A stretch of 31,224 nt of DNA, from IMG/VR virus record IMGVR_UViG_2974516482_000001, positions 1 to 31,224 of that record; one strand, given 5' to 3'. Shown here one piece after another: positions 651 through 2,366 of the stretch. How positions within the stretch are numbered: position 1 is the first letter of the stretch; each line of letters opens with the position of its first letter. The notes beneath the pieces were generated by a model that was not told the origin of the DNA, searched no databases, and worked only from the letters and a program-made list of their open reading frames with translations. The position numbers and the translations under genes are program-made. Origin of the DNA: a virus (Duplodnaviria > Heunggongvirae > Uroviricota > Caudoviricetes > Ackermannviridae).

Positions 651-656
651 GCAAAC

Positions 657-1020
657 TGATGCGCTGTGAGACACATCTGGGAGGGCACTCTGTGGATTCA
701 TTTTACAGCATCCCGTATAGCGGATACCGACCTCGATCAAGTGCCCTCTCAGATGTCGGCGGGAGCTTATTAATCACACCCTCCCGCCTATTTTTAGTGC
801 GCCGAATTTTGTTATGAGGAATCGGAAGACCTCACTGACTTATAGGCTATTACGCCGCCATCAGAACTTCGGAATCATTAGCAGTTATTTGCTTGGTCAG
901 TTTCTAAAAACCCGCAAAGTCGCATCCAACGAGAACGAAAACCTGTTTGAGTCCTAAACCTACCTGTCTTGGTCTCACATCGCTATGAGTGGCCAGGACT
1001 CAAACAGCTTGCCGTTCAGT
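657..1020 (-). ncRNA. tmRNA-like RNA (mRNA-like domain with tag frame; tRNA-like domain non-canonical)
   Basis: Minus strand 882->850 reads GCT AAT GAT TCC GAA GTT CTG ATG GCG GCG TAA (then TAG) = ANDSEVLMAA**. It is preceded by AAAUAACU and has no start codon or SD. Helix over the stop (GGC-GUAAUA-GCC), pseudoknot-like element at ~802-834, promoter at 1027-1052, length ~364 nt. Confidence 0.65.
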
Positions 1021-1026
1021 GAGTTA

Positions 1027-1052
1027 ACTATACTTTGTAACCCGTTATTGAT
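1027..1052 (-). promoter_or_regulatory. Putative early-type promoter ATCAAT-N14-TATAGT driving the tmRNA-like RNA (TSS ~1020)
   Basis: Same spacing as the TTCAAT-N14-TATAAT motif at 2403-2428; AT-rich upstream tract. Confidence 0.6.
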
Positions 1053-1070
1053 AAAACCTTTTATTTTTGT

Positions 1071-1137
1071 TGACGAGGGTGTGGAATCGAACCACACTTC
1101 TGAGCGCTACCCCGTGTCACCAATGCACCACCTCGCC
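1071..1137 (-). ncRNA. tRNA-like element with truncated anticodon arm (not a decoding tRNA)
   Basis: Minus strand GGCGAGG-TG-GTGCATTGGTGACAC-G-GGGTAGCGCTC-AGAA-GTGTGG-TTCGATT-CCACAC-CCTCGTC-A: 7-bp acceptor stem, D-loop GG, canonical TTCGATT T-loop, 11-nt anticodon arm instead of 17, no encoded CCA. Confidence 0.75.
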
Positions 1138-1539
1138 ATCGATTTGCCGGAACTTACGCATCCGGCCTCGTCCTGTCGGTGTTCTTCTGAATCCGGGAAG
1201 ATCAGCAGGAACTATGAATCAAGTTAATTCAACCAACAGGAATCCTCGTGTTGCCCTTTGACGCAACATTATGAACCCTCTATGAAGACTCATAATGTTG
1301 TCGGCGTGATGGAGATTAGCGCCCCCGACCTCCCCTTATATGTTGGTGTCGACTTGCCAACGGGGTGCTCTCTGATTCTGAGATAATCACGCTACAACAG
1401 GGAGTTTCGTTCTCCGACGGTCAAGTGCGTCCACTGACACCAGCGAGGTGGATATTGACTTATGGAGCCGGAGTCCTCGTCCTAGGACTGTGCTTGGCCT
1501 CAGCCTTTACACCGCTGGTCGCCCGACTCTTTACACCAT
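1138..1539 (-). ncRNA. ~400-nt structured RNA with RNase P RNA-like layout (degenerate core)
   Basis: GAGGACUCCGGCUCCAUAAG (1459-1478) resembles GAGGAAAGUCCGGGCUCCAUAGG. CACCGACAGGAC..GCCGG (1161-1181) resembles CACGACAGAACCCGG. P4-like UCCGGC/GCCGGA, P3-like hairpin 1501-1517, CAGAGAGCACCCCG (1361-1374), 11-bp stem 1264-1274/1290-1300. Comparison is from memory of E. coli M1 RNA. Confidence 0.4.
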
Positions 1540-1796: not shown

Positions 1797-2366
1797 TTAT
1801 TTTAACACTTCTAACTTCACAACACGACGCAGAAGGTAAACATATTCGCCAGCAGCTTCATGCGTCATATAATGGGTAGAAGGTGTGGAATGATTGTTCT
1901 GGGTTTCTTTTAACCCAACGCGTTCAGCCCAACCATTAATAGAGTTCCCATAGAAACCGATAATCGCGCCGAAATAAATGCGCTGGCTCTCTGGTTCTAA
2001 AATATAGTTGACAGTGAAACAGATGTCAGAACGAATAGACTCCAGTTTCATACCAACACGACCTTCGGAGAATTCGTTACGAACATATAAATGACGGAAA
2101 CGATCGCGCCGCGCTTGTGATGATTCTTCCAATTCTTGTCGGAGTGAAGAAGTTACGTCAATATTAAATGAAAATGTTGGATTTTGTAAATCGGAACGGG
2201 CCAACTCTAACGCAGATTCAACAACGCGACGGAAATTGATACTTTTACCTGTCAGGCGTTTCACTTCATCTGTGATTGTTCCAAAAGGGATTTTCGTGGC
2301 GCGTTCCCCTTCGTATTTTGCCAATAAAGGAATAATGTGTTTCATGATTGCTGTGTTAATGTGCAT
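1797..2366 (-). CDS. Hypothetical protein, 189 aa
   Basis: Long ORF with SD GAGG and its own upstream promoter; no family recognised. Confidence 0.85.
   Translation of the reverse strand: MHINTAIMKHIIPLLAKYEGERATKIPFGTITDEVKRLTGKSINFRRVVESALELARSDLQNPTFSFNIDVTSSLRQELEESSQARRDRFRHLYVRNEFSEGRVGMKLESIRSDICFTVNYILEPESQRIYFGAIIGFYGNSINGWAERVGLKETQNNHSTPSTHYMTHEAAGEYVYLLRRVVKLEVLK

Follow-up and report, generated by a model that had tools for sequence, protein, structure and literature searches.

We propose that the minus strand of a Kuttervirus genome (Ackermannviridae), from about position 1020 to position 755 of the stretch analyzed here, specifies a non-coding RNA that derives from transfer-messenger RNA (tmRNA) and carries a peptide tag, and we hold it very probable that this tag RNA is real. 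The stretch, referred to below as the window, is the first 31 kb (31,224 nucleotides, nt) of a 159-kb genome, IMG/VR record IMGVR_UViG_2974516482_000001. We conclude that the tag RNA descends from the mRNA-like half of tmRNA, that it is without a tRNA-like half of its own, and that a 50-nt arm antisense to host tmRNA replaces pseudoknot 1. The phage RNA probably blocks or rewrites the degradation tag that is placed on unfinished proteins.

What marks the reading frame as a proteolysis tag? Its ten codons read ANDSEVLMAA on the minus strand (Table 1), just as a preliminary description of the window had claimed, and the span of 850-890 given there reaches from the motif 5' of the tag to the first of the two stop codons. 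In minus-strand order, AAAUAACU is followed by the tag codons and then by UAA (852..850) and UAG (849..847). No ATG, GTG or TTG opens the frame, and an in-frame TAG lies eight codons 5' of the GCU resume codon; ordinary initiation is therefore excluded, and the earlier statement that the frame has no initiation codon is correct. The same description had likened AAAUAACU to the resume-codon determinant of tmRNAs, and the likeness is real: positions −5 and −4 hold U and A, the counterparts of U85 and A86 of E. coli tmRNA. Published mutagenesis has given these two E. coli residues a role in frame setting. The predicted helix-5-like stem is also present, with the first stop codon in its loop. The tandem stops fared less well: UAA UAG is there in the window, but the second stop is not kept, and relatives read TAACGG, TAAGAA or TAACAG at this place.

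The tag is conserved far beyond the Ackermannviridae. A sensitive DNA search matched about 128 nt around the tag (796-923) to unrelated phages at 72-85% identity, with matches outside the family in Shigella DS8, the N4-like phage Pollock, the Felix O1-like phage phiEa21-4 and Klebsiella siphoviruses, and the frame is kept in the alignment with tags such as ANDDVVLMAA, ANDAQFLAVA and ANEEMYLAVA. A pattern scan of IMG/VR contributed at least 119 further loci, for 125 loci in all and 86 distinct versions, to which the following counts refer. In all 86 distinct versions listed the frame is exactly 10 codons long and follows the pattern AN[DE]xx[hydrophobic]L[AM][AV]A. Ala1 is encoded by GCA or GCT only, Asn2 by AAC or AAT with the exception of one AAA (Lys), Leu7 by CTG or TTG only and Ala10 by GCC, GCT or GCG only, while position 3 is always Asp or Glu; the stop codon is TAA in 82 versions, TGA in two and TAG in two. 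The UAA at −5 to −3 that precedes the resume codon occurs in all of the commonest upstream variants listed, AAAUAACU of the window included. Furthermore, the tag frame is without insertions or deletions, whereas nearby loops differ in length. Synonymous change, the exchange of one stop codon for another and the absence of insertions and deletions are together the signature of a translated peptide, and the substitution pattern shows selection on the peptide. Thus the conserved frame and the synonymous pattern that the preliminary description had proposed to look for in related phages are both present among the 86 versions.

Could the frame have arisen by chance? By our own rough estimate, a window of 31 kb would contain AA followed by two stop codons about 0.5 times, and very many windows were scanned, so that a fortuitous open frame in non-coding DNA deserves consideration. 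However, frame, length, context and flanking structure are conserved across unrelated phage families, and the same 10-codon pattern recurs in 86 of 86 distinct versions. The earlier judgment that the frame is hard to explain as chance was sound, and we regard the probability of a coincidence as negligible.

The RNA around the frame is structured (Table 1), with a fold z-score of −6.1 for 1020..655 on the minus strand. In a test of 25 pairs in 55 sequences, 96.2% of the cells were paired, as opposed to 31-44% when the partners were slid; both partners had changed in 138 cells, whereas shuffles gave 42 +/- 6 and none of 500 reached the observed count; a compensatory change is found in 11 of the 25 pairs. 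The first helix of the helix-5-like stem is 99% paired, with G-C replaced by A-U in 23 sequences. Behind it, stem 1 of the pseudoknot that resembles pseudoknot 2 (PK2) has compensatory changes in three of five pairs; stem 2 was fixed by the search pattern used to collect the loci, and compensatory variants of it are found in VLCpiS10a (CCAG/CUGG) and P1 (GUCG/CGAC). The loop of the pseudoknot resembling pseudoknot 3 (PK3) and its downstream partner occur as eight distinct complementary types, and all four stem-2 pairs counted are compensatory. Of 80 distinct versions, 67 have a spacer of exactly 12 nt between arm and resume codon; E. coli tmRNA has 11 nt between pseudoknot 1 and its resume codon.

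The flanks of this core are more variable. In the window it is framed by two long, nearly perfect hairpins, A at 944-1008 and B at 673-756 of the minus strand, which may be processing sites or serve ring closure. Hairpin A is replaced by another long hairpin in some lineages and has no equivalent in others, and counterparts of hairpin B with a different sequence are found in DS8, the prophages, Pollock and P1; similarity among Ackermannviridae often ends near 754. The flanking hairpins of several prophage copies (L081, L020, L014 and L099) share the stem GGUAAGGGCAUU / CAGUGCUCUUUCC around inserts that vary and are in some cases tRNA-like, and the shared stem makes alternative pairings or a cassette-like array possible. 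The transcript would start near 1020, downstream of a sigma-70-like promoter that is the single match of a consensus scan, which is no more than shuffles yield (mean 1.7). The promoter motif is kept in other Ackermannviridae that could be aligned, the first hexamer reads TTGTCA in relatives, and DS8 and phiEa21-4 have TTGACA-17-TAGATT or TAATCT directly 5' of their copies. A strong sigma-70-type promoter (TTGACA, 17 nt, TAGATT) also stands directly before the arm in the siphovirus and prophage copies L098 and L003, and in L098 the RNA is followed by three tRNA genes.

Table 1. Features of the tag RNA and of related elements. Positions are those of the window unless the whole genome is named.
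Feature	Position	Strand	Description
Upstream tRNA-like element	1071-1138	-	67 nt; perfect T arm 1096-1080, acceptor stem; 190 nt 5' of tag
Sigma-70-like promoter	1027..1054	-	TTATCA 1054-1049, 16 nt, TATAGT 1032-1027; consensus scan
Hairpin A, long 5' hairpin	944..1008	-	stem CUGUUUGAGUCCU / AGGACUCAAACAG
Antisense arm	895..943	-	four colinear blocks a-d, complementary to E. coli tmRNA
Block a	943-934	-	GGUUUUCGUU, complementary to tmRNA nt 96-105
Block b	924-918	-	UGCGACU, complementary to nt 86-92, covers resume codon G90
Block c	918-906	-	UUUGCGGGUUUUU, complementary to nt 69-81, 3' strand of pseudoknot 1
Block d	900-895	-	CUGACC, complementary to nt 57-62
Spacer	883..894	-	AAGCAAAUAACU; 12 nt single-stranded, U at -5 and A at -4 before resume codon
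Tag frame ANDSEVLMAA	882..853	-	GCU AAU GAU UCC GAA GUU CUG AUG GCG GCG; 10 codons, resume codon GCU
Stop codons UAA UAG	847..852	-	first one alone kept in relatives
Helix-5-like stem-loop	835..864	-	CUGA 864-861/UCAG 838-835; GGC 856-854/GCC 847-845; stop in loop
PK2-like pseudoknot	802..834	-	UGAGG 834-830/CCUCA 818-814; loop CCGA 825-822/UCGG 805-802
PK3-like pseudoknot	758..801	-	CGCAC 801-797/GUGUG 779-775; loop GGCGGGAG 788-781/CUCCCGCC 765-758
Hairpin B, long	673..756	-	ACAUCUGAGAGGGCAC / GUGCCCUCCCAGAUGU, variable insert
Tag-less tmRNA-like tRNA domain	157829-157668 of whole genome, outside window	-	~160 nt; 2.4 kb downstream of tag RNA

The antisense 5' arm is the most telling feature of the RNA, and it suggests that the tag acts by way of the host tmRNA or in opposition to it. 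Comparison with the ssrA sequence of E. coli K-12 shows that the 50 nt before the spacer are colinearly antisense to tmRNA nt 57-108, a region that comprises pseudoknot 1, the single-stranded resume region, the resume codon itself and the first six tag codons. The duplex predicted for the arm of the window has an energy of −44 kcal/mol, versus −27 +/- 4 in dinucleotide shuffles, none of 200 being as low, and over full-length tmRNA the pairing has z-scores of −3.7 (window) and −4.8 (a T5-like copy). All 73 distinct arms contain a block of at least 7 base pairs (bp) on tmRNA nt 96-105, and many form 10-11 Watson-Crick pairs there (AGUUUUCGUC with GACGAAAACU). The pairing has been extended independently by lineage, to 14 bp on nt 95-108 in phiEa21-4-like copies, to 13 bp on nt 80-92 in L024 and to 11 plus 12 bp in L010; in an unscored reading of the sequences, the phiEa21-4-like arm matches the host tag codons and not its own tag. 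Complementarity is thus extended, conserved across lineages and beyond what composition provides, and every lineage keeps its predicted pairing to the host tmRNA. Across the tmRNAs of 120 Enterobacterales genomes the targeted stretch hardly varies, which fits the conservation of the arm.

Two shorter resemblances to tmRNA lie further downstream. The conserved linker UGAUUAA (771-777, minus strand), which in 85 of 90 versions could pair with tmRNA nt 236-242, was considered as a second contact and rejected as a 7-mer of the size that chance provides. The PK3 strand CUCCCGCC (758-765) is identical to tmRNA nt 346-353, the 3' strand of the T arm, and is short enough for chance.

How might a tag template without a tRNA-like domain be read? 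Peptide-level selection implies that the frame is read, and the only way known to us of reading a frame without a start codon is resumption after trans-transfer. Host tmRNA is the sole partner that every lineage is built to bind, and docking on host tmRNA is therefore favored. We propose that, in an infected cell, the arm base-pairs with host tmRNA where its mRNA-like region is exposed, and that pseudoknot 1 is thereby opened. Annealing would hide the host resume codon and would set the phage resume codon 12 nt from the end of the duplex; the host has 11 nt between pseudoknot 1 and its resume codon. Ribosomes rescued by host alanyl-tmRNA-SmpB would then fail to read the host tag, or would read the phage tag, and stalled proteins would end in (A)ANDSEVLMAA instead of (A)ANDENYALAA. 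Every step beyond complementarity, including annealing in vivo, use of the tag and a benefit to the phage, is one that we infer. As an account of the whole mechanism, docking on host tmRNA that replaces or blocks the tag template is in our estimation about evenly balanced between right and wrong. More tentatively, and at somewhat less than an even chance, the two RNAs might form a hybrid two-piece tmRNA, in which the host gives the alanyl tRNA-like domain and SmpB, the phage gives the template, and the tag is rewritten.

Several observations weigh against docking on host tmRNA. A complete one-piece tmRNA that takes its template in trans is not known, and a hybrid of phage and host RNAs would not close the tmRNA ring. 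The gapped antisense score exceeds that of shuffles by only about 3 standard deviations (52 of 70 arms beat all 25 shuffles), and as arm and target are both rich in U and A, part of the signal is composition. The near-invariance of the target among hosts leaves too little variation for host-matched covariation to be sought. A tag-less tRNA-like RNA of the same genome, which in some phages lies directly behind the tag RNA, may mean that the partner is another molecule. Finally, four public RNA-library runs consist of assembled contigs, some of them 18 kb long and probably DNA, which cannot show transcripts or RNA ends.

The arm could also serve a simpler end. As a pure antagonist, the RNA would be an antisense inhibitor or decoy of trans-translation that sequesters the tmRNA template, or else SmpB, S1 or the ribosome; its own tag would never be translated, and its tmRNA features would be mimicry. 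Such an antagonist, with its arm over the resume codon and the first six tag codons of the host, would unfold pseudoknot 1, and docking alone accounts for its having no need of a tRNA-like domain. But mimicry at the level of RNA predicts neither the fixed length of 10 codons nor the absence of insertions and deletions, the synonymous changes and the stop-codon swaps, and we consider a function confined to antagonism unlikely.

Is the tag RNA instead part of a complete tmRNA that the programs have missed? The preliminary description had recommended searches with ARAGORN and the Rfam tmRNA models, and neither returned a tmRNA. ARAGORN called neither tRNA nor tmRNA in the window, and its tmRNA search of the 125 related segments and of the whole phage genome was negative. 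At gathering thresholds, Rfam reported nothing in the window and tRNAs only in 12 related loci; at permissive settings, the best match was the permuted tmRNA model tmRNA_permuted (RF04321) at 1000..850, whose score of 20.7 bits (cut-off 47) arises mostly from the tag region. The proposal of a phage-encoded tmRNA derivative is nevertheless upheld in part. The RNA has a tag frame that resumes on Ala without an initiation codon and ends, after a hydrophobic, Ala-rich terminus, in a stop; it has the U at −5 and A at −4 of the resume context, a helix 5 around the stop codon and, behind it, two covarying pseudoknots; and its substitutions show selection on the peptide. What it lacks is pseudoknot 1, whose place is held by the arm (943-895), for which no conserved partner was found within the RNA, and a tRNA-like domain in the same gene (acceptor G3-U70, T arm, 3' CCA). 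The idea of a self-sufficient tmRNA is not supported, as the gene contains no recognizable alanine-accepting tRNA-like domain.

A candidate for an acceptor part near the tag is the upstream tRNA-like element at 1138-1071, from which a complete tmRNA, standard or circularly permuted, might be assembled. This element has a perfect T arm and, if read from U1138, G3-U70 and A73 in this window; one record, that of phage SeKF_64, annotates it as tRNA-Ala, and the weak RF04321 match would suit a permuted gene. However, G3-U70 is found in only 4 of 11 counted copies (5 distinct forms) and is G-C in the other seven; the element has neither an encoded CCA nor an anticodon arm or its equivalent; a promoter-like site separates it from the tag RNA; and DS8 and L098 are without it and have a promoter directly before their copies. 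For a permuted tmRNA, a 5' acceptor strand was sought between the upstream T arm and the tag, and none was found. The upstream element is not counted as part of the tag-RNA gene, and the complete-tmRNA reading, which we regard as highly improbable, is already largely refuted.

Prophage and DS8 copies have a domain of their own on the 3' side. In L081, L039, L095 and L098, at about +130 to +260 after the core, and in L003, a region is closed by GUUGUGGUG / CACCACAA, and a conserved hairpin, GCCGG AGUUCAGCA CCGGC, stands directly before the closing strand in a tRNA-like layout. Seen as a tRNA-like domain, this module has acceptor-like and T-like helices, but no G-U pair, no CCA and a 9-nt loop.

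The main rival to docking on host tmRNA is a split phage tmRNA, with the tag RNA as the coding piece and the tag-less RNA at 157829-157668 of the whole genome as the acceptor piece; the two pieces would join and work together with SmpB and EF-Tu of the host. The tag-less RNA is tmRNA-like. It lies behind tRNA genes in the same direction of transcription as the tag RNA, and in this genome it has the acceptor GAGUGUG/CGCACUC, the canonical T arm UCGGG UUCGAUU CCCGA, the tail U-CCCA and a hairpin whose loop, AAGGUGUGCAUGCC, is similar to tmRNA nt 38-49. The 7-bp acceptor covaries among relatives (GAGUGUG/CGCACUC, GGGUGCG/CGCACUC, GGGCGUG/CGCGCUC and GGGUGAU/GUCACUC), most lineages start with GGG, and the tail is kept in four of five forms, one Klebsiella phage having UCCCU. 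The RNA is conserved in 231 Ackermannviridae records, where it is sometimes annotated as tRNA-OTHER, tRNA-Leu or tRNA-Ile, and it or a homologue follows the tag core at a distance of only 146 nt in 8 loci (T5-like and three other phage types) and of 2.8-3.2 kb in 5 Kuttervirus loci.

Against this stand the pairing, identity and distribution of the tag-less RNA. The tag RNA has no 5' acceptor strand such as the coding piece of a two-piece tmRNA would have, and its arm does not pair with the tag-less RNA, for which the z-scores (−0.3 with the arm of the window, −2.1 with that of the T5-like copy) are well short of the values for host tmRNA given above. The alanine identity pair is not conserved: the G-U pair is found at 2:71, moves to 3:70 only when a further U-U layer is included in the count, and is replaced by A-U in this genome. 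Among the Rfam models, the tmRNA model RF00023 matches elsewhere in the genome only, at the T arm of the tag-less RNA alone, with 13.6 bits. The motif of the tag-less RNA was found in 13 of the 125 tag-bearing loci, with flanks of varying length, and a motif search found it in none of the DS8, Pollock, Felix O1-like, prophage and P1 loci, an absence that the varying flanks leave unproven. The tag-less RNA keeps the split reading in play as the main rival but cannot be the partner in all lineages, and we judge a split phage tmRNA to be quite improbable. Beside the tag-less RNA, a tRNA-shaped element that ARAGORN does not call directly follows tRNA-Ser at about 157840-157925 of the whole genome (minus strand); it has the acceptor UGCUUCA/UGAAGCA, D and T arms and an oversized anticodon region, and no CCA.

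Where is the tag RNA found? The core occurs in 759 of 50,697 phage records (about 1.5%), from phages of Salmonella, Escherichia, Klebsiella, Erwinia, Shigella and other enterobacteria, and the groups represented are Ackermannviridae, Felix O1-like, N4-like, T1-like and T5-like phages, P1 and D6. Among 5,426 complete E. coli genomes, 689 also have it, chiefly on P1-like plasmids, and in 137 of the 689 the copy is nearly full-length. The RNA lies in or beside phage tRNA clusters, and this location points to a role when host defenses or phage nucleases stall ribosomes. In the window, positions 1-2680 are nearly without open reading frames and lead, on the minus strand, into tRNA genes for Met, Asn, Ile and Ser; the sole sizeable open reading frame of this RNA island (1797-2366, minus strand, 189 amino acids) is a hypothetical protein in the annotation of relatives. 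The phiEa21-4 copy is inside a tRNA array and on the same strand as the tRNAs, and the P1 copy, with the tag ANDDLMMVAA, comes after dmt and before the phage tRNA genes (MH445381, about 32160-32375; L248:895-1110). The latter copy is unannotated and stands directly behind a terminator. None of the records examined annotates the RNA, and some carry spurious small hypothetical open reading frames over it. A depth peak at 811-900 in a wastewater run was considered as a sign of expression and rejected, since it reflects many phages sharing the core.

What would follow if this proposal is correct? tmRNA is regarded as a self-contained molecule, and a template-only derivative that targets host tmRNA would be a new form of viral takeover of translation quality control. 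If the hybrid tmRNA exists, a single small RNA lets phages of many families redirect bacterial ribosome rescue, and the tag that the phage specifies would be recognized differently by proteases or adaptors. The phage tags keep AND and a hydrophobic residue 6 but end in L-[AM]-[AV]-A, and their recognition by ClpX, ClpA and SspB may differ. Carriers of the tag RNA include P1 and the Felix O1-like, N4-like, T5-like and Vi1-like phages used in therapy and biocontrol, as well as many E. coli prophages and P1-like plasmids, and the RNA offers a natural scaffold for rewriting degradation tags. We found no description of this tag RNA in the open literature that we searched. The 2025 tmRNA database, which has 79 phage entries, is built on ARAGORN, BLAST to known tmRNAs and models of the tRNA domain, and these methods would miss it.

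Finally, how does the tag RNA compare with known systems? With the one-piece tmRNA (SsrA) of Enterobacterales (RF00023) it shares an Ala resume codon without a start codon, U at −5 and A at −4, a 10-codon tag that begins with AND and ends in Ala (ANDENYALAA in E. coli), a stop codon in the loop of helix 5 and H-type pseudoknots behind. Unlike SsrA, the phage gene has no acceptor stem, T arm or CCA, its pseudoknot 1 is replaced by an arm antisense to host tmRNA, its tag ends in L-[AM]-[AV]-A where that of the host ends in A-L-A-A, and the RNA falls far below the Rfam cut-off and is invisible to ARAGORN. The two-piece tmRNAs of alpha- and beta-proteobacteria and cyanobacteria (RF01849, RF01850, RF01851 and RF04321, the last being the best weak match to the phage RNA) likewise have a template apart from the 3' CCA end, and the function of the phage RNA, like theirs, would depend on pairing between two RNAs. 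However, the known pieces share one precursor, and their coding piece has the 5' acceptor strand at its start and an acceptor piece of its own as pairing partner, whereas the phage arm is aimed at a complete host tmRNA, and at the template rather than the tRNA-like domain. A two-piece tmRNA has also been reported in a marine methylophage (PMC9004378). Mycobacteriophage DS6A has a tag-less form of tmRNA that is thought to interfere with host tmRNA (PMC11915505). The DS6A form and the tag RNA are both phage-borne fragments of tmRNA with one of its two functional halves, but DS6A keeps the tRNA-like half without a tag and the tag RNA is the reverse, so that the nearer analogue of the DS6A form is the tag-less RNA at 157829-157668. 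Lastly, as in the trans-acting antisense small RNAs of phages and prophages, a conserved single-stranded seed would pair with a host RNA; in contrast to them, the target here is a stable RNA of the translation machinery, and the arm is fused to a structured, translatable tmRNA module of about 130 nt.

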